Shown piece after piece: positions 18,165 through 61,762 of a stretch of 64,000 nt of DNA. Position numbers and translations under genes: made by a program. Position 1 is the stretch's first letter. Each line of letters begins with the position of its first letter. The stretch is from Candidatus Doudnabacteria bacterium RIFCSPHIGHO2_02_FULL_42_25 (GTDB taxonomy: Bacteria; Patescibacteriota; Doudnabacteria; UBA920; O2-02-FULL-48-8): the NCBI GenBank assembly GCA_001777665.1, contig MFEQ01000003.1, forward strand, positions 11,258-75,257. The letters are read 5' to 3'. The notes under the pieces are model-generated. The model was not told the origin of the DNA, did no database searches, and saw only the letters and a program-made list of their open reading frames with translations.

Positions 18165-18251
18165 GCCCTGGTGGTGGAACTGGCATACACGCAGCACTTA
18201 AAATGCTGTGGCCGAAAGGCCTTGAGGGTTCGAGTCCCTCCCTGGGCACCA
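18165..18251 (+). tRNA. tRNA-Leu(TAA), type II
   Basis: Anticodon loop CTTAAAA. Variable arm GGCC-GAAA-GGCC. T-arm GAGGGTTCGAGTCCCTC, followed by CCA. Confidence 0.85.
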
Positions 18252-18936: not shown

Positions 18937-19170
18937 TGAATAATGCTTTCTTAGCTTTGGTTATTCATAGCTCCTGGCTACGGATAAACAAAGTTGGTTA
19001 GACCTTATAATTTATAAAGAGCTTGATTTTGTTTGCGTAACCCTGCAAATATGGGCTTTTTGACAACATTAGGCTTTTATGGCGTAATGTTGCCTGCCCC
19101 GCCCTGTCCGGAGACAGGGTCGGGTACGCAACTATCAATCTTAGCATAAAACGCCAGCTTTGTCAAGGCT

Positions 19171-19200
19171 TGATCATTGCCCCATATTTGGGCTATAATC
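19171..19200 (+). promoter_or_regulatory. promoter of tRNA cluster (TTGATC-18-TATAAT)
   Basis: -10 TATAAT lies 12 nt upstream of tRNA-Leu(GAG). Confidence 0.5.
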
Positions 19201-19377: not shown

Positions 19378-19403
19378 GAAGAATTTGGTATAATGTACAT
19401 CAC

Positions 19404-19690
19404 GCCGCGGTAGCTCAGCGGTAGAGCGCAGCCCTAAATATCTTTGGGGCCAGAATCAGTAATGGTTCTTGAGAAAAATTGGGTGAATTCGGGGGAACCC
19501 CAGTCATGCTGGACAATCCCGAGCCAAGCCAGAAAGGGCAATGGTTTTCTGGAAGGTGTAGAGACTAGCAAGTGAGTCCCAACAATAATCTTGCAAACAG
19601 CGCCCAACTCCTTTAGTAAGGATGATGATATAGTCCACATAGCTTCGGAAGAGGCTGGCGTCGGGTGTTCGACTCACCCCCGCGGCACCA
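19404..19690 (+). tRNA. tRNA-Phe(GAA) interrupted by a group I intron after U33 (exons 19404-19435 and 19648-19690)
   Basis: Exons assemble to GCCGCGGTAGCTCAGCGGTAGAGCGCAGCCCU|GAAGAGGCUGGCGTCGGGTGTTCGACTCACCCCCGCGGCACCA. P1 (GCCCU/GGGGC) and P10 (GAAGA/UCUUU) pairings fix the splice sites. Confidence 0.75.
19436..19647 (+). ncRNA. group I (IC3-like) self-splicing intron in the tRNA-Phe anticodon loop
   Basis: Conserved blocks match the Azoarcus tRNA-Ile intron: GAAGGTGTAGAGACTAG, CGAGCCAAGC, GCAAAC. The 5' exon ends in U and the intron ends in G. Confidence 0.8.
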
Positions 19691-19763
19691 GAAATATTTG
19701 ATGTTCTTTAAAAACCGAACCCTTAATGGTATAATAGACAGGTAAATAACTATAGTTTTAATT

Positions 19764-20432
19764 ATGGCTAGAAACGATAAACATTTAGCACTGCTATTAA
19801 GAAAATCTGGGAAAAGTTATGGTTTTATAAGTCGAGAGTTGCAAATTCCCAAAAGCACTTTATCAGAATGGTTTAGTGGTCTTAAGTGGTCAGGTATTGT
19901 AAAAAATAAACTTATCACAAAGGCCAACTTGCTAGCACAAAAGCGGATGCGTTTAATGGCGAAAGCTAATCAAAAACGCTGGCTAGATTGGAGAGCAGGA
20001 TATCGGTTACAAGCTATAGAAGAATTTGAGCTATTGAAGAATAACCCTTTATTTATCTCGGGTGTAATGCTTTATTGGGCAGAGGGAGATAATGGTAAAA
20101 AAAGTAGTAATGTTCGACTAGCCAATATTGATCCACGAATGATCCGAATTTTTATCAAATTCGCTTTAAAGATTTGCAAAGTTTCAAAAGCAAATATTAG
20201 AATCGGTTTGATTTTATATCCTGATTTAAAGGATACAGTATGCAAAAGTTTTTGGAGTAAATATTTAAAAATACCTATCGTTCAGTTTCATAAAACTCAA
20301 GTGATTAAAGGGAATCATCCTACAAAAAGACTCGAATACGGCATTTGTATGGTCAGAATTGGTGGAGCAGGACTAAAGGAAAAAATAAAAGTTTGGATAG
20401 ATCTATGTTCAAAAGAAATTATGCGGGTATAG
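19764..20432 (+). CDS. free-standing LAGLIDADG-like homing endonuclease-like protein with N-terminal HTH
   Basis: FISGVMLYWAEGDNGKK...VRLANIDPRMIRIFIKF resembles the second LAGLIDADG block of I-DmoI (FIKGLYVAEGDKT...LRIWNKNKALLEIV). 3' end overlaps tRNA-Gly by 10 nt. Confidence 0.45.
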   Translation: MARNDKHLALLLRKSGKSYGFISRELQIPKSTLSEWFSGLKWSGIVKNKLITKANLLAQKRMRLMAKANQKRWLDWRAGYRLQAIEEFELLKNNPLFISGVMLYWAEGDNGKKSSNVRLANIDPRMIRIFIKFALKICKVSKANIRIGLILYPDLKDTVCKSFWSKYLKIPIVQFHKTQVIKGNHPTKRLEYGICMVRIGGAGLKEKIKVWIDLCSKEIMRV

Positions 20433-47047: not shown

Positions 47048-47122
47048 GCGCGTGTAGCTCAGCGGTAGAGCGATTGTCTTATACACAATTGGCCCCAGGT
47101 TCGAATCCTGGCACGCGCACCA
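47048..47122 (+). tRNA. tRNA-Ile(TAT)
   Basis: GCGCGTG/CACGCGC acceptor, discriminator A, CCA. Anticodon loop CTTATAC (UAU). T-arm CCAGGTTCGAATCCTGG. Confidence 0.8.
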
Positions 47123-55005: not shown

Positions 55006-55054
55006 AGCCGGGACCCCTGTGGAGCCCCGGCTTTTTTGCGTTGACTTCAACGCG
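55006..55054. terminator. bidirectional terminator at the pilin-array / high-GC island junction
   Basis: agccgggacccctgtggagccccggctttttt, plus a second small hairpin gcGTTGActTCAACgc. Confidence 0.7.
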
Positions 55055-56045
55055 AGGATGCTTCGCAGTCTTTCTTTACAGTTGACTGGTCGAACACTCG
55101 CTGTTCCTTGAAGTGGTCGTCAGTTATGACGATGGTCATGTGGCGACCACCGACGACCTCGTTCTCAGCCTGTGAGTACGCCCTCACTGGCCAAGTGTAG
55201 TAATGCCCATCGCTGATCCGAACGGCAGTCAGGTCTGCGTATTCGCCAGCGATTAGCGGTACTTTTTGATCGACGATACCGTCGATCTGGTTCGCCGCAC
55301 CGATGTAGCAACCCCGCAGGTAGATCTCGACACCTTTGGTCCTGCCCTGAGTCTTCAAGCCGCCGATCGTACCACGGTTCCTGACAGTTCTGGAGACCTC
55401 GGCGTAGAACGGGTCGACGTAGCCCACGGTTCCTGGCTGCATATAACCCACAGCTCCGTAGCCAACCGCAGCGGGGTAACCGATGCTGCCGTAGGCAAAT
55501 CGATTCTGTTTGGCCAGGAAACTCTCGCATCCGTAATCGCCGTAAAAGCAGGGATTATAACCCGGCAAACTCCGGCGACGTCGGTACATCTCGTCTGGAT
55601 CCATCTGCGGAGGCTGGATGGCAGCAGATCTTGCTTGAACTGCTGGACCTGACACGACAGGATTCGCGTTCTGAGTCGCTGTGACTTCTGGGACTGTTGC
55701 TTCCTGTAGGCTCCCCGGTTTGACTTTGCGAATGTAGGTAAGAGGTGGCTTCACCTCCACGTAGCACCCGATTCGACCCGCGACTTGCTTCAGCACCTCG
55801 TATACCGGGAAGTCATCGTAAGGCACGAGCGGCGGAACGATGCGCGATGCTTCACAGCCTGCGGTGTGAGCGACAATACCGATACGGCTGTTTGCGCCGT
55901 CACCCGAAAGCTCGGTCACGATCTCCCCGAACGTTTTCGATTTCGTGAGGTCGATGGTGACGCGCTCCTGCTGTGCCGCTGGAATCTGCGCGTAAACCGG
56001 CATTGCGAACGCCAGTGCGCTGAGAACGAAAAAGAAACACTTCAT
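55047..56045 (-). CDS. high-GC island gene 1: secreted hypothetical protein with GY-rich region
   Basis: SD ggagggg, ATG at 56045, signal peptide MKCFFFVLSALAFAMPVYAQ. Own promoter at 56113-56141. Confidence 0.55.
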   Translation of the reverse strand: MKCFFFVLSALAFAMPVYAQIPAAQQERVTIDLTKSKTFGEIVTELSGDGANSRIGIVAHTAGCEASRIVPPLVPYDDFPVYEVLKQVAGRIGCYVEVKPPLTYIRKVKPGSLQEATVPEVTATQNANPVVSGPAVQARSAAIQPPQMDPDEMYRRRRSLPGYNPCFYGDYGCESFLAKQNRFAYGSIGYPAAVGYGAVGYMQPGTVGYVDPFYAEVSRTVRNRGTIGGLKTQGRTKGVEIYLRGCYIGAANQIDGIVDQKVPLIAGEYADLTAVRISDGHYYTWPVRAYSQAENEVVGGRHMTIVITDDHFKEQRVFDQSTVKKDCEASSR

Positions 56046-56112
56046 TGTTTGCCCCTCCATTGAGGCTGTTAACGCATACTTCGTTGAGAGCTGGGCGGGA
56101 AATTTAATAAAA

Positions 56113-56141
56113 CAGTATAGCAAAAATAAGCAATTTTGTCA
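56113..56141 (-). promoter_or_regulatory. promoter TTGACA-17-TATACT in an AT-rich spacer inside the high-GC island
   Basis: Read on the - strand. Preceded by a terminator hairpin at 56196-56236 for the upstream operon. Confidence 0.45.
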
Positions 56142-56266
56142 ATAATAGCACGAAAATATTAGTTTGTAAGTAAAAAAAGACCGGCCTCTCTAAAGCGAGA
56201 AGCCGGGGCGACGCTACTAATGAGCGTCGAAAATACTCTTATTTGTTCATCCTCCTTGGATGCTAC

Positions 56267-57139
56267 CTAGTTGATTTTGACTAGCAGTTCGCCCGGGTGG
56301 GCTTTGCAGACGTCGGTAGAAAACGTCTGTCCTAACTGCGGGTTGTCAGGTGTGATCACGAACTTGCGCTTGCCGGAACCGATGAAGTAACCGCTTCCTT
56401 CGGCGCCGTCTAGCACGACTAACCCGTTGAACCACCCCTGAAAGTGTCCGCCCTCGTAGTACTTCGGTCCGACGCAAAGTACAGCGTCAGAGAACAGAGG
56501 GAAACCGGCTTCGCAGGAGTCGCCGTCCTCGTCGCAGAACCGGCCGATCGCTTGATTGAGTTTGCCGGTTTCTGGAGTCGGATTATCGAGTCCGCGTTCG
56601 TGCATCAGGACTGTTCGGTCCCGAGCATTGGGATTACGTATCCACGTAATTCCATCCGGACCAGATTCGTGGGTCGGGTAGTACTTCGGTCGAACCTTCC
56701 CAAAAACCTGGATCCTTGTCGGTACTCGGATCTCCCGAAGGTAAGCCCAGTCTGTATCGTCGGCTTCGACCTCGGTAGACAGATACGACTCGTCACGGTC
56801 GGCGGCGTGAGCGTCCCATGCTTTTTCGACACGGACTAGATCCCGTGATCGATTGGCAGATGGCCACAAAATCGCCAGTAGTTCGTTCGAGTTAGTGACC
56901 TTCCGCTGTCTTTCGGCACGTCTCACGATCTTTTCGCTCTCGTCGTTGAGCTGAAGAGCGTTGACATGGTGTTCGCGGCTGAGCTTGGTCTGCATCTCCT
57001 TCTGCGCTTCCCAGTACCGCGGGCGGTTACGTTGCTCGTAGTACTGATAAAGCGCGAAGCCGATGGCAATCACTGCGAGGACCTTCATGATCGCGCGCAA
57101 GTTGACAGAACTGGTTTTCTTTTTGTCTTCTCTCGCCAT
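56267..57139 (-). CDS. high-GC island gene 2: N-terminally membrane-anchored hypothetical protein
   Basis: SD gaggag, one TM helix (LAVIAIGFALYQYY), and a Cys-containing extracytoplasmic domain. Confidence 0.55.
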   Translation of the reverse strand: MAREDKKKTSSVNLRAIMKVLAVIAIGFALYQYYEQRNRPRYWEAQKEMQTKLSREHHVNALQLNDESEKIVRRAERQRKVTNSNELLAILWPSANRSRDLVRVEKAWDAHAADRDESYLSTEVEADDTDWAYLREIRVPTRIQVFGKVRPKYYPTHESGPDGITWIRNPNARDRTVLMHERGLDNPTPETGKLNQAIGRFCDEDGDSCEAGFPLFSDAVLCVGPKYYEGGHFQGWFNGLVVLDGAEGSGYFIGSGKRKFVITPDNPQLGQTFSTDVCKAHPGELLVKIN

Positions 57140-57149
57140 GTCAGTCTCC

Positions 57150-58181
57150 TCAGTGATGATGACTCGTGGACTTCATGGACCCCGCTAGAATGACAAGGCC
57201 TACCAGAAGAAGCAAAATCGGATGCTCTTCGAAGTAGTTTGTCCCTCGCGAGATCCAGCCTTCGGAGCTTTGATCTTCTTCAGGTTTGAGATCAGCCTTG
57301 ATCTCCTGGATCGCTTCCAGTTGCTGTTCGTCTTCAGCCGTCCAGGAATGACCGACTGGATCAAGTTTGTACTCGCGCTGTTTATTCAGCAGCTGGAGTT
57401 CTTGCTTGTCCACCCGTTCACGCCAGTACCGGTCGACGCCTTCCTTGGTTTCGATACTCTTCGCAGTCTGACGCTTTTCTGTCTGACTGTAGTGATACTT
57501 CGCCATGAGGTAGTCGTATGTTCCCGGTGCGATGGTCCGTACGGTCATTGGTCCCAGAAGGAACAGCGCGTATACGGTAACTGCGTATCCGAGCCGTCGC
57601 CGCCATTTCTTGATGTCGACGAAGTCCTCTGTAGCGACGAAGAAGAGGATCATCGTTGTGATCATCACCGTTGCGGAGAACCAGTCGTTCTCCCACACCG
57701 GGAAGATCCCACACACCATCAGGAAGACTTCCGACCACATGAAGATGGTCGAAATCAGATGGAACGCGATTCCACTGATGTACTTCTCGTGCCACAGGAC
57801 TTCCTGACTGCCTGCGTGCACTTCAGCGTGTACTTCCGGAGGCTGACCCACGATGTTGCGGAGCCAGTTCGGAATTACTTCGTTTACTCGACGCCATATC
57901 CCAATAAAGAGATCGACGCCGAGGAGAGGAACCGCGATCTTGCGCGAGACGTAGAGGTAAATCAGGTACCCGGTGAAAATTCCAATGCGGGCCGGGGTAT
58001 TACTCCCCAGGACCCGAGTGGCTGCTGCGAACACCACGATGTTCGCGATCATCAGGATCACGGCGATTTGCACGTCGCGAACCTGATCGCCGAACCAAAC
58101 CCTGAACTCGGTCATTCGGAGCCGGCCAATTCGCGCCCGCTCCTGAAGGTTCTCCCACAGTGCTTCGAACATCTCGAACAT
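57150..58181 (-). CDS. high-GC island gene 3: polytopic membrane protein (about 6 TM), His-rich C-terminus
   Basis: SD aagagga and multiple hydrophobic helices. Confidence 0.55.
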   Translation of the reverse strand: MFEMFEALWENLQERARIGRLRMTEFRVWFGDQVRDVQIAVILMIANIVVFAAATRVLGSNTPARIGIFTGYLIYLYVSRKIAVPLLGVDLFIGIWRRVNEVIPNWLRNIVGQPPEVHAEVHAGSQEVLWHEKYISGIAFHLISTIFMWSEVFLMVCGIFPVWENDWFSATVMITTMILFFVATEDFVDIKKWRRRLGYAVTVYALFLLGPMTVRTIAPGTYDYLMAKYHYSQTEKRQTAKSIETKEGVDRYWRERVDKQELQLLNKQREYKLDPVGHSWTAEDEQQLEAIQEIKADLKPEEDQSSEGWISRGTNYFEEHPILLLLVGLVILAGSMKSTSHHH

Positions 58182-58199
58182 TGCAGTAATCCTCTTAGG

Positions 58200-59084
58200 T
58201 TAACGGGAACGAATCCCGAAGTTGAAGTGAAAGCGCCGACGCGGCCGCTTGAGTTTCGTGACCTTGGTCACCCGATCCGTCTTCGCCGCTTCATGTACCC
58301 GGACTATCTCGACCTGGCTGTCAATGCGGTGTCTGCAGAGATCGTATTGACGCTTCTCCGCTCGCTCTTCACGCCGCAGTGCCCGCCATTCGCGGAATCG
58401 AGCCCAGCGCTGCTCCCACCAATTACTCAGTGAAGTCATGAGGTTGCGGTTGGCTCTGTGCTGTTTTGCAGCCAATTTTTGTTCGAGACCTTCCCGAACT
58501 CCACGCAGTCGCAGCGTGTCCTGTCGAACGCTCTGGGTAGCCTCGGTCAGTGCTTTCTGACCGTCTTTCTGGAGCCACTTCAGGAACGTCTGCCACGTCG
58601 TCTCCACTTTTGACTGATCGAGGTTCATGACATGCGCCCAGCGATCCCATTCGTCATCTGTCATGCGAGCATCCTTCTCGAGAGTATTCGCGATTTTCTC
58701 GGGAGTATCTTGCATGACAGTAATCCGATACCAGTCAGACTGCTCCGATGTGAGCTTAGCGAGGCGTTTCGACAACCTGGTGCGGTCGTTGTCTTCGAGG
58801 AGGTTCCTTGCGTCGTTGAAGCGTCGCTCGTCCTCGCTCTTCACGCCCCAGATCCGCAGCCCGATGTAGTCCGCTGCGGTTGCACTGATCTTTTCGCCGG
58901 TTTTCTCGGCGAAAGATCCGAGGAGCTTGTTTAGAATCGAAACGCCGCTCGCGGCCAGGAGCTTGACTATTGACGCGACGCCGATCGCGGAGGTGGCCGT
59001 ACCGAGGTGCTTCAGGAACTCGAATCCGTCGGCGCCTCCATGGTCCTTCGGTTTTTCTTGCGGTGTGTCTGCCATCTGTCTCAT
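58200..59084 (-). CDS. high-GC island gene 4: hypothetical protein (coiled-coil rich, Arg-rich C-terminus)
   Basis: ATGA start/stop overlap with gene 5. Confidence 0.55.
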   Translation of the reverse strand: MRQMADTPQEKPKDHGGADGFEFLKHLGTATSAIGVASIVKLLAASGVSILNKLLGSFAEKTGEKISATAADYIGLRIWGVKSEDERRFNDARNLLEDNDRTRLSKRLAKLTSEQSDWYRITVMQDTPEKIANTLEKDARMTDDEWDRWAHVMNLDQSKVETTWQTFLKWLQKDGQKALTEATQSVRQDTLRLRGVREGLEQKLAAKQHRANRNLMTSLSNWWEQRWARFREWRALRREERAEKRQYDLCRHRIDSQVEIVRVHEAAKTDRVTKVTKLKRPRRRFHFNFGIRSR

Positions 59085-59836
59085 GCCTCTTTGAGTAAAG
59101 TCTTCTTCACCAGCTCGTTGCTCTCCTCGTGGAGGAAAGAGCAGTACGCATCAGCTGTCAGGAGCTGGATATGAAGAGTGAGTTTGCCGTTGTCGAGAGT
59201 TTCGAACCCTTTTTCGCCGTCATACACCTCGTCATATCCACGCACCTTGAATTTCTGACCGGCGTTGATAGACACCGTCCCTTGCTCTGGCTTGCCGGTC
59301 TCGTCCTTACAAATGAACGTGACCGGATTCCAGTTGTCCAGGGACAGAGGATGGGGGATGACTTCGAATCGCTTCTTGTCGTCCTTCTTCGTCGTCGGTT
59401 CCGCCACGGGAGTGAACTTGCCCGTCGTGGGCAGAGGTTTGGTATCCTCCCAGCTGTAGACGCCGTGCACGGCAGTGATGTGCGTGAACTTCTCGTGTGC
59501 TGTCGTCAACGGGAATTTTCCCGCTGCGATGCCGCGCTCGTCGGTTTCGAGCACCCAGACACTCTTGCTCCCATCAGCTGCAGTCTTCTCGATCTGCTTC
59601 TGACGTTTCTGGGTATCGGCACCGAGCCAGAACCAGAGTTGTTCGCCTTTGATGGCTTTGCCGTCCTTCGTGATTCTGACAGAGAGTTCGACTGCTTCGC
59701 GCTTACCTCCGCACTCGAATTCGTACTTGAAGACGGGTGCCTTCGGTCGCTTGTCCTGTTGCTTCCCGCGATCTTGCTGACCGCGGTTTCTGTTCTGATC
59801 GCGCTGTCCTCCAGTGCGACCTTGGTCTCTTGCCAT
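59081..59836 (-). CDS. high-GC island gene 5: hypothetical protein with low-complexity N-terminus
   Basis: SD ggaaggag. First gene of the five-gene minus-strand operon. Confidence 0.55.
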   Translation of the reverse strand: MARDQGRTGGQRDQNRNRGQQDRGKQQDKRPKAPVFKYEFECGGKREAVELSVRITKDGKAIKGEQLWFWLGADTQKRQKQIEKTAADGSKSVWVLETDERGIAAGKFPLTTAHEKFTHITAVHGVYSWEDTKPLPTTGKFTPVAEPTTKKDDKKRFEVIPHPLSLDNWNPVTFICKDETGKPEQGTVSINAGQKFKVRGYDEVYDGEKGFETLDNGKLTLHIQLLTADAYCSFLHEESNELVKKTLLKEA

Positions 59837-60029
59837 GTCTGCTCCTTCCGCATTTAGCGGGAATTTGATGTTGATTTTTCTGTGAGACTACCTGATACCA
59901 ACCACACTTTCGTGTAGCCGATCTCAAACAATCTCGTGTACAAACCTAGGTTGTCAAAGGACTCTCATGTCCAAATGCCATATATGTGGCGGGCAGACAT
60001 GATTAACGTCAAATGATAGCAGATTTTGG

Positions 60030-60091
60030 CCATTTTGTCAATAGTTAGCGTTATCTGAAAGGTTGACAAAATGGGCTGTTTTTGCTACTAT
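60030..60091. promoter_or_regulatory. symmetric divergent promoters: CCATTTTGTCAA ... TTGACAAAATGG with -10 TACTAT (+ strand) and TATCAT (- strand)
   Basis: Both -35 hexamers lie in the arms of a 12-bp perfect inverted repeat (60030-60041 and 60063-60074). Confidence 0.5.
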
Positions 60092-60154
60092 TTGGGGTCG
60101 CAAGTTGGGAATGAGCCTGACTGCGCGTTCGTCCACAAATCACAGGGGGAAATA

Positions 60155-61585
60155 ATGCTGCCAACTCGAATTAAGGTTCTCTGGTTGACGGCGGCGGAAA
60201 TTATAGCGATGGCCGCAGGAAAACCCTCTGGGGTTTTCTGGGGTGTAGTCACTCACACTTCGCCACACCTCGACGAACTATGGGGCGTATTCCAACTTCG
60301 GCACTGGGGAGAACATCGATTCCCCGGAATCTGTAGTCCGGATTTCGTGCTCGTGCTCCTCATGGATCCGGATAGCATCACTTGGCAAGAACTCTCTGCG
60401 CTCGGTCTCATTCCCGTCGGTATCGGGGGAAAAGAAAATCCCTTCGATGAGCATGGTCTCGTAGACGAAGATGGCGAACGAGTCGAGACTTGCGCTGCGA
60501 TGTTAATCGAGCGTGGTCACCGGCCTCGGTATAAGAAAGACCCGGGTGGTTACAAGGCCTGGTTTCAGGATGCAATGAAACGCGGACTGGATCTTCTCAA
60601 TCGCGTGAAGTTCTTCCGGAGACTCTATCCGAACGCCCAGGTTTACATCCATGCCATCGACACAATCACCAAGTACGTCCGACAGGGTGATCTCAATCGG
60701 ACCGAAGACAAGCACGCGGCCGGCAATGACGTGAAGGACCGATGGTCCGTATACGAGGACTTGGCGCGTAAGAAGCTTCGTCTACCGAAGGACATGACTC
60801 CGCTGGCGGAATTTATTCCAAAGGACGAGCGAGAAGCCTTAAACGTCCTTGGAACACGCGTCGTCAATGACACATTCAGGGACCTTTGGCTTTACTTGGC
60901 TCGGGGAATATCGTTCGCAGATTGCATTCGCCGAGTTAAGGACAACCCCCCGGAGAAGCGCAAGTTCTACATCGAAGGTATCAAGCCTCCGATGTGGCTG
61001 AAGATTATTCGGGAGCATCATCCGCTTGCGAATTTGCGTGAAGTTCCTCCCGTGCTTCGACATCTCGGTGCGGACTGGACATATAAGCGGAACGCCTCGG
61101 GCCACATCCACATCGGCTTCCCCGACTACGTCATTAAGATCGTCGAGGAAGACGAGATTGACTCGGAAATGACGACGACAGAAGAGGAGTACGTTAGTCG
61201 GACACGCATCAAGGTCAAGTTCTTCATCCAGAACGTTCTCCGGGCCTTGCGACGTCTGGAGAAAGTTAAGTTCGGGAAGAATTGGACTGAAGAAGAAATG
61301 GGACGACCTCAGCTCGAAGGTTCGCTGTTTTCGACACCGAACCTAGAGGCTGGATTCATCCTGTGGGGTTCGACTTTCGCCGGGCAAGGAACCATAGCTT
61401 GTCCGTTTGAAGATGATGATCTGATCCAGCTCCTCATCGACAACATCGAGGGCGAGATCGTCGAGTCGCGCGAACTCCATCACGCCAAGAAACTCGCAAG
61501 GGAGGAGGACGAAGTAAGGCAGCAGATCGCGATAACCGCAGTGACTTCACTGGCAGATATGCCAGTGGACGTAACTGTCGGCTAA
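60155..61585 (+). CDS. high-GC island gene 6: cytoplasmic hypothetical protein (476 aa)
   Basis: SD aggggga plus ATG 60155. The longer ORF-track frame begins inside the promoter. Confidence 0.55.
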   Translation: MLPTRIKVLWLTAAEIIAMAAGKPSGVFWGVVTHTSPHLDELWGVFQLRHWGEHRFPGICSPDFVLVLLMDPDSITWQELSALGLIPVGIGGKENPFDEHGLVDEDGERVETCAAMLIERGHRPRYKKDPGGYKAWFQDAMKRGLDLLNRVKFFRRLYPNAQVYIHAIDTITKYVRQGDLNRTEDKHAAGNDVKDRWSVYEDLARKKLRLPKDMTPLAEFIPKDEREALNVLGTRVVNDTFRDLWLYLARGISFADCIRRVKDNPPEKRKFYIEGIKPPMWLKIIREHHPLANLREVPPVLRHLGADWTYKRNASGHIHIGFPDYVIKIVEEDEIDSEMTTTEEEYVSRTRIKVKFFIQNVLRALRRLEKVKFGKNWTEEEMGRPQLEGSLFSTPNLEAGFILWGSTFAGQGTIACPFEDDDLIQLLIDNIEGEIVESRELHHAKKLAREEDEVRQQIAITAVTSLADMPVDVTVG

Positions 61586-61675: not shown

Positions 61676-61762
61676 GCCGGGGTGGCGAAACTGGCAGACG
61701 CATCAGCTTTAGGAGCTGACGGAAGAAATTCCATGCAGGTTCAATTCCTGTCCCCGGCACCA
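61676..61762 (+). tRNA. tRNA-Leu(TAG), type II
   Basis: GCCGGGG/CCCCGGC acceptor, discriminator A, CCA. Anticodon loop TTTAGGA. Long variable arm. T-arm CAGGTTCAATTCCTG. Confidence 0.85.

Follow-up and report, generated by a model that had tools for sequence, protein, structure and literature searches.

Group I introns occur at nearly every position of the tRNA anticodon loop, with 33/34 as a common site that is occupied in tRNA-fMet, as stated in a survey of tRNA introns in Patescibacteria (Nakagawa et al. 2026, mSystems, PMC13011429), and Williams 2020 (bioRxiv 10.1101/2020.01.27.920355) raises the tRNA/position settings from the four classical ones to 21. Table 1 of the Nakagawa survey gives one genome, GCA_016699995.1, as Phe (GAA) 33/34, a call made identically by the authors' pipeline, ARAGORN and tFind; Table S3 assigns this intron to class Doudnabacteria with a length of 211 nt, and it is listed there without a description of its structure. 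Here we consider a 64,000-nt stretch of DNA (hereafter the window) from Candidatus Doudnabacteria bacterium RIFCSPHIGHO2_02_FULL_42_25 (contig MFEQ01000003.1), in which positions 19404-19690 hold a tRNA-Phe(GAA) gene interrupted by an intron of this kind.

The GCA_016699995.1 intron resembles the window intron in its host tRNA, its 33/34 site, its length (211 vs 212 nt), the loop motif of its P7.1 hairpin and its class, with 78% identity between the introns; both are followed by a 3′ exon starting with GAAGA and both have a short tail without an internal P9. It differs in coming from another species and in how the tail pairs, GACGC with exon GCGUC (39-43) around a 7-nt loop AG|GAAGA there and a 7-bp stem with a GGAA loop in the window. 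By isotype, anticodon, site, homologous intron sequence and phylum, the window intron belongs to a known class, already published and widespread, that of the Patescibacteria tRNA-Phe(GAA) 33/34 introns. Another relative, the tRNA-Asn intron of GCA_016700035.1, also from Patescibacteria, has 75% identity, the same core and a P7.1 hairpin with loop GUGAGCCCAACAAUAAUC. Patescibacteria introns at 35/36, Asn included, likewise lack a homing endonuclease in most copies; they sit in other tRNAs and carry an intron-internal, GNRA-capped P9, whereas the window intron lies at 33/34 and has no internal P9. A Patescibacteria tRNA-Asn intron self-splices in vitro (PMC13011429), and the 75% identity and shared P7.1 motif suggest that the window intron may be active as well. 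Bacterial tRNA-fMet introns, cyanobacterial and other, share the site directly after U33, one of the four classical settings. They differ in host and anticodon (CAU), so that omega-G (the terminal G of the intron) plus anticodon would give GCAU, outside the GNRA pattern, and the Patescibacteria Met examples (PMC13011429, Table S3) keep an internal P9.

Relatives were collected with a pattern scan of one genome per species (P7 5′ strand, gap, P7 3′ strand, gap, omega-G followed by GAAGA), which returned at least 119 stretches; boundaries of the homologues were set by the anticodon stem. At least 94 further tRNA-Phe(GAA) genes carry a homologous intron after U33 in these species-representative genomes. 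The original prediction on this DNA had taken a Phe host and an insertion between 33 and 34 to be unusual; with 33/34 the classical tRNA-fMet site, the Doudnabacteria Phe(GAA) 33/34 case already tabulated (PMC13011429) and at least 94 more examples, that view does not hold.

We consider it very probable that positions 19404-19690 are a tRNA-Phe(GAA) gene cut between U33 and G34 by a 212-nt, protein-free group I ribozyme intron and spliced by the pathway proposed below. The arrangement is far beyond chance, its architecture being common to at least 94 homologues and its fold covarying. The gene is divided as follows:

19404-19435, forward strand: tRNA-Phe 5′ exon (acceptor 5′ strand, D arm, anticodon-stem 5′ strand, C32 and U33), 32 nt, last base U, GCCGCGGUAGCUCAGCGGUAGAGCGCAGCCCU.
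19436-19647, forward strand: group I intron, 212 nt, last base G, identified by its RF00028 match (72.1 bits) and the covariation of its fold.
19648-19690, forward strand: tRNA-Phe 3′ exon (G34 A35 A36 G37 A38, anticodon-stem 3′ strand, variable loop, T arm, acceptor 3′ strand, A73 and encoded CCA), 43 nt.

Joining 19435 to 19648 in silico yields a clean 75-nt cloverleaf with the 7-nt loop CU-GAA-GA and the predicted ligated-exon junction CAGCCCU / GAAGAGGCUG. With introns allowed, ARAGORN reports tRNA-Phe(gaa) i(33,212), i.e. a 212-nt intron after position 33; in default mode it finds 12 tRNAs in the window and the split tRNA-Phe is absent from them. The spliced product has the 7-nt anticodon loop, GAA, U33 and discriminator A73 of a bacterial tRNA-Phe. 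Its best annotated phage match by blastn E-value is also a tRNA-Phe (95% over 40 nt, other isotypes at lower identity), which lends the isotype modest support. G37 is common to all homologues, the search pattern itself having demanded GAAGA. It pairs with C of the P10 guide and, in the hairpin formed by intron tail and exon that is treated below, with the base preceding omega-G. In Escherichia coli, tRNA-Phe carries A37, not G37.

Might the splice sites instead be shifted, for example to after U19439 and G19651, so that the tRNA would read AAA or have another identity? For a few relatives ARAGORN returns (aaa) i(37) or other isotypes, two-base mis-assignments are documented for Asn and Asp introns (PMC13011429), and many of the 5′/3′ junction combinations near the loop, all of which we spliced and ran in ARAGORN, yield some tRNA call. 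Only the 19435/19648 junction, however, unites U-1, omega-G, the 7-nt loop, P1 and P10. The Rfam alignment sets the conserved splice-site U on U19435, where the U.G pair is invariant, and the sister intron is called Phe(GAA) 33/34 by each of the three methods of PMC13011429. The AAA-anticodon reading is ruled out by the comparative data: the first intron bases vary (AAA, GAA, GGA, AGA, CAA) while U-1 and its G partner are invariant in 53 of 53 sequences, so those bases cannot be an anticodon. We therefore regard shifted sites as very improbable and keep the junction after U33.

RF00028 (Intron_gpI) matches 19426-19657 over the full model (1-253) with 72.1 bits, the gathering score being 50 and E = 2.4e-16, and together with the P1 U.G pair, omega-G with P10 and a covarying core with a P3/P7 pseudoknot this identifies a group I intron. 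We drew the secondary structure by hand on the window sequence and projected it onto a MAFFT alignment (A1) of 53 short-tailed precursors, to which the pair counts below refer. Its 78 pairs are formed in 94.5% of cells, against 79.8% after shuffling (0 of 500 shuffles reach the observed value) and 36-49% when the partners are slid by 1-3 columns. Compensatory changes on both sides are found in 44 of the 78 pairs; P2, P3, P5, P6a, P8 and an extra hairpin covary, while P7 and the splice-site U.G are invariant. The elements are:

19431-19450, forward strand: P1, exon GCCCU 19431-19435 with guide GGGGC 19446-19450, U19435.G19446 at the 5′ splice site, U.G in 53 of 53.
Within 19431-19450, forward strand: P1 extension, AAA 19436-19438 with UUU 19443-19445, loop UAUC.
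19441-19445, forward strand: P10 guide UCUUU, pairing with 3′ exon GAAGA 19648-19652, 5 bp read from the sequence.
19451-19471, forward strand: P2 hairpin with a GUAA (GNRA) tetraloop at 19459-19462, 7 of 8 pairs changed on both sides.
19479-19485, forward strand: P3 5′ strand UUGGGUG, partner 19601-19607, 99.7% paired.
19488-19523, forward strand: P4 (19488-19493 with 19518-19523) around P5 (19500-19503 with 19509-19512), 4 of 4 P5 pairs covarying.
19524-19556, forward strand: P6 (CC 19524-19525 with GG 19555-19556) and P6a (19529-19535 with 19546-19552), 7 of 7 P6a pairs changed on both sides.
19561-19567, forward strand: P7 5′ strand GAGACUA with bulged A, guanosine-binding helix, partner UAGUCC 19631-19636, invariant in 53 of 53.
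19568-19594, forward strand: extra P7.1-like hairpin between P7 and the P3 3′ strand, stem GCAAG/CUUGC, conserved 17-nt loop UGAGUCCCAACAAUAAU, 5 of 5 pairs changed on both sides, 93.5% paired.
19601-19607, forward strand: P3 3′ strand CGCCCAA.
19609-19622, forward strand: P8 hairpin UCCUU-UAGU-AAGGA, 78.5% paired in a gappy part of the alignment, 3 pairs changed on both sides.
19631-19636, forward strand: P7 3′ strand UAGUCC.

About half of the sequences have C-G in place of U-A at the outer P3 pairs, and the P7 strands match the Rfam consensus AGACUA...UAGUC. Among the matches listed, a GNRA loop stands at the P2 place in 94 of 95 homologues. UCUU of the P10 guide is at least 90% conserved in A1, though it lies outside the search pattern. 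The exon position-30 pair with the guide is C-G in 43 sequences and G-C in nine, a covariation which indicates that P1 overlaps the anticodon stem. No homing endonuclease is present in the intron, whose sole open reading frame (ORF) is antisense (68 aa, 19434-19640) and has no Pfam match. The original prediction had given the 32- and 43-nt exons, the 212-nt insert with its coordinates, a group I intron in tRNA-Phe(GAA) with loop CU-GAA-GA and G37, splice sites after U33 and G19647, a 5-bp P1 (GCCCU/GGGGC) with U.G, a terminal G and a 5-bp P10 (GAAGA/UCUUU), and all of this is borne out here; the tRNA-Leu(UAA) gene at 18165-18251 is intronless, as it also stated.

The same comparison speaks to the possibility that the locus is a pseudogene in decay, its intron an inactive relic and its tRNA disabled while a different tRNA-Phe serves in its place, for which one could point to the 64 kb of genome in view. 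All four tRNA stems, the anticodon stem included, are paired in 99.7% of cells, with four of the five anticodon-stem pairs covarying; core and tRNA helices are kept by compensatory changes across 53-95 species, with P7, omega-G and U-1 invariant. Since the anticodon stem is intact only after splicing, covariation of both ribozyme and cloverleaf implies that mature tRNA and ribozyme are each under selection, strong evidence against a pseudogene. In the sister genome, the Doudnabacteria genome with the published Phe intron, all three finders report exactly one tRNA-Phe, the split one, and no other. We judge decay highly unlikely and return to a split gene that would be in use and is probably the only tRNA-Phe of its organism, in which case splicing would be essential. 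What weighs against this reading is that 64 kb only are in view and a second, intronless tRNA-Phe may lie elsewhere in the genome.

The subgroup is another matter. The intron had been called IC3-type, and in part this stands: the P3-P8 core sequence is similar to IC3 introns. Like the Azoarcus tRNA-Ile and Anabaena tRNA-Leu(UAA) introns, it is small (~200-250 nt), protein-free, placed in the anticodon loop and has a GNRA loop on P2, and identity to two IC3 introns is 65-69% (69% global with Anabaena). Parts of the Azoarcus P4-P6 and P7 core, which we take to read GAAGGUGUAGAGACUAG and CGAGCCAAGC, are similar to the window intron. GCAAAC, put forward as a further core match, sits at the 3′ base of the P7.1 hairpin, not an equivalent position in a hand comparison with the Azoarcus sequence, and the likeness is probably coincidental. 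The two IC3 introns differ from that of the window in their internal P9, the lack of P7.1 and other insertion sites. In them P1 is short and is supported by an anticodon stem that remains paired (PMC3895272; Zaug et al. 1993 as cited there), whereas P1 of the window intron takes 4-5 exon bases and overlaps the anticodon stem.

In the Michel-Westhof and GISSD schemes, the interval from P7 to the P3 3′ strand holds no additional helices in IC3 introns, and P7.1/P7.2 at this place mark subgroup IA. The window intron has one covarying hairpin there (19568-19594), as expected for IA and not for IC3; its 27 nt fall in a 31-nt insertion of the Rfam alignment. An intron-internal P9 is likewise missing, since only 11 nt follow P7 (19637-19647) and a hairpin forms there only with the 3′ exon. 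In the sole published survey, subgroup models put no Patescibacteria tRNA intron in IC and nearly all in IA (Nakagawa et al. 2026, PMC13011429). Because of the P7.1 hairpin, the missing internal P9 and this published classification, assignment of the window intron to IC3 is doubtful.

In about 10 of the 53 relatives (loci L036, L040, L046, L064, L088, L091, L103, L107, L116 and L119; A1 columns ~221-262) the single conserved-loop hairpin (GUGAGUCCCAACAAUAAUC) is replaced by two, P7.1 and P7.2, namely UCCC-GAAA-GGGA and a second, variable one. The Phe-intron family has two alternative peripheral designs at this site.

What takes the place of P9 is the one possibly new structural detail of this locus. 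In the RNAfold minimum free energy structure a hairpin spans the 3′ splice site:

19640-19657, forward strand: tail UAGCUUC 19640-19646 paired with exon G37-G43 GAGGCUG 19651-19657, loop GGAA.

The GGAA loop is made of omega-G19647 and the anticodon G34 A35 A36 (19648-19650), and P9 of the Rfam model falls on the bases of this hairpin. In the literature searched we found no description of an intron-exon P9 of this kind. We tentatively propose, at somewhat less than an even chance, that in P9-less tRNA-Phe introns P9/L9 is rebuilt across the 3′ splice site from the last seven intron bases and exon 37-43 with a GNRA-type GGAA loop, and that this explains the Phe(GAA) 33/34 home, couples opening of the anticodon stem to folding and holds omega-G back as a two-step switch.

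Pairing between tail and exon was examined without an alignment, anchored at the splice site, in 56 unique short-tailed introns. In register 0 the pairing fractions per position are 0.95, 0.73, 0.95, 0.77, 0.68, 0.64 and 0.66 (mean 0.77, against at most 0.54 in shifted registers); the full 7 bp form in 23 of the 56, and when exons are permuted among sequences the observed pairing is reached in 0 of 5000 cases. Matching tails occur in lineages with seven different anticodon-stem sequences. Long-tailed relatives offer a second comparison: all 16 among the matches listed have a P9 inside the intron, which starts 3-4 nt after P7 and whose 6-7 bp stem ends in a GUAA, GAAA or GCAA loop, and the tail/exon hairpin is like this P9 in offset from P7, stem length and loop class.

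Several points weigh against a role of this kind. The hairpin is not universal, about one fifth of the short-tailed relatives having little or no complementarity (e.g. L012, L098, L107, L093 and L046), and where exon position 41 changes, the tail goes along with it only about half of the time. Exon 34-38 was fixed by the search pattern, so that P10 and the top of the hairpin are unable to show covariation. With omega-G in its loop the hairpin must open for the second step and could equally be inhibitory or neutral. A real intron whose tail/exon hairpin plays no part in splicing is therefore a plausible alternative, to which we also give somewhat less than an even chance: P9 would simply be lost, P1, P10 and the core would suffice, perhaps with help from a host protein, and the tail would resemble the 5′ exon's end by descent or chance. 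Minimal group I ribozymes without peripheral helices exist, several relatives lack the complementarity, and the excess over shuffled controls, which ignore shared ancestry, is modest (88.5% vs 82.0%, reached in 0 of 500 shuffles, with at most 62.8% when slid; 86.4% vs 76.4% in a separate count). A hairpin without function does not so readily account for seven different anticodon-stem sequences with matching tails, the specific register and the agreement with the relatives' true P9 in length, P7 offset and loop type.

The tail could also have another partner, pairing not with the 3′ exon but with the internal guide as a mimic of the 5′ exon in P1, and act as a competitor or a self-inhibitor after splicing. 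Being pyrimidine-rich, it pairs with GGGGC in 88% of cells, and its alignment-free best-run score with the guide is as high as with the exon (4.2 vs 4.0). This pairing, however, shows no covariation beyond composition (88.1% vs 86.8% shuffled, the covariation score being reached by 174 of 500 shuffles), and the lineages that have U29-A41 or A29-U41 keep the guide GGGGC but have a tail matched to the exon. We consider guide pairing unlikely and retain the exon as partner in the proposed P9 substitute.

With the splicing chemistry that we infer from the group I family laid over the anatomy read here, the pathway would run as follows. The precursor would be transcribed together with, or just after, tRNA-Leu(GAG) and tRNA-Val(UAC). 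Guide GGGGC and exon 29-33 GCCCU would then form P1, with U33 in the U.G wobble, and the anticodon stem would be invaded and opened; as P1 takes exon 29/30-33, this stem must open for splicing, which frees its 3′ strand. The freed strand, with G37 and A38, could form the 7-bp GGAA-capped hairpin with the last seven intron bases at the P9 place of the relatives, where it would stand in for P9 and, ahead of the first step, sequester omega-G. A free guanosine that is bound in P7 would attack after U33. The top of the hairpin would next open, GAAGA/UCUUU would form P10, omega-G19647 would move into the P7 site and U33 would attack after omega-G. The expected product is a 75-nt tRNA-Phe with encoded CCA, in which the anticodon stem re-forms.

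If this is true, the hairpin would give a reason for the home of the class in tRNA-Phe(GAA) at 33/34. A functional hairpin would also be a compact case in which a ribozyme takes part of its host tRNA, namely the anticodon, for a structural module, and a conformational switch between the splicing steps. That would be relevant to RNA structural biologists and to designers of circular-RNA and trans-splicing systems, which currently draw on the tRNA introns of Anabaena and Azoarcus.

The single row in the published complete-genome table gives too small a picture of the Phe(GAA) 33/34 class, which is much more widespread. As labelled, nearly all of its members are Patescibacteria, from Saccharibacteria, Paceibacterota/Parcubacteria, Doudna-, Wolfe-, Harrison-, Yanofsky- and Giovannonibacteria and others. 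The window intron is one more instance of the published pattern in which protein-free group I introns persist in this phylum's tiny genomes. For annotation, standard tRNA finders without intron options miss this split gene and the genome would seem to lack tRNA-Phe. Among the matches listed, the closest relatives of the window gene are from Candidatus Doudnabacteria metagenome-assembled genomes (MAGs), with 83% identity over the whole precursor; in one of these (L070) five flanking proteins are kept in the same neighbourhood at 49-77% amino-acid identity. Both points indicate a patescibacterium, probably of class Doudnabacteria. Some pattern matches lie in MAGs not labelled Patescibacteria, i.e. 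uncultured Gammaproteobacteria (L006, L010, L022, L044, L109 and L113) and Aminicenantes (L055, L071 and L094). The Aminicenantes matches are tRNA-Asn introns, and several of those labelled Gammaproteobacteria are Phe introns of the same family; these could be mislabelled or mis-binned contigs or reflect real spread beyond the phylum.

Immediately upstream of the split gene lies the tRNA-Leu(GAG)-tRNA-Val(UAC) pair, preceded by a promoter-like site at 19170-19199 (motif scan). Besides read-through from this pair, tRNA-Phe may have a promoter of its own, suggested by the following motif:

19386-19394, forward strand: TGGTATAAT, putative promoter in the form of an extended -10-like motif, lying 10 nt upstream of the 5′ end of tRNA-Phe.

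A second, identical TGGTATAAT is found at 19727-19735, upstream of the ORF at 19764-20432.

The window has a G+C content of ~41% and encodes GyrA, ribosomal protein S1, a Mur ligase and FtsH, which marks it as cellular DNA. A phage origin was considered and rejected, a blastn search of 50,697 phage records giving only two weak, partial matches (72%) to E. coli jumbo phages and the window genes being cellular. The protein adjoining the split tRNA is unchanged on metagenome contigs from many samples. ARAGORN, with introns up to 1500 nt, reports no other split tRNA in the window, and there is no second Rfam group I match, the divergent tRNA-Thr introns of PMC13011429 being of a kind that escapes both tools. 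Six consecutive ORFs at 55047-61585 (358, 290, 343, 294 and 251 aa on the reverse strand, 504 aa on the forward strand) have no Pfam match at E <= 0.01. They occupy the only G+C-rich stretch of the window (0.48-0.55 vs ~0.41), directly upstream of tRNA-Leu(UAG) (61676-61762) and FtsH, and may be an acquired island beside a tRNA gene. The anticodon UAU is uncommon in bacteria, where AUA is usually read by a modified CAU tRNA; the window holds a tRNA-Ile with this anticodon at 47048-47122, which scores 76.7 bits on the Rfam tRNA model.

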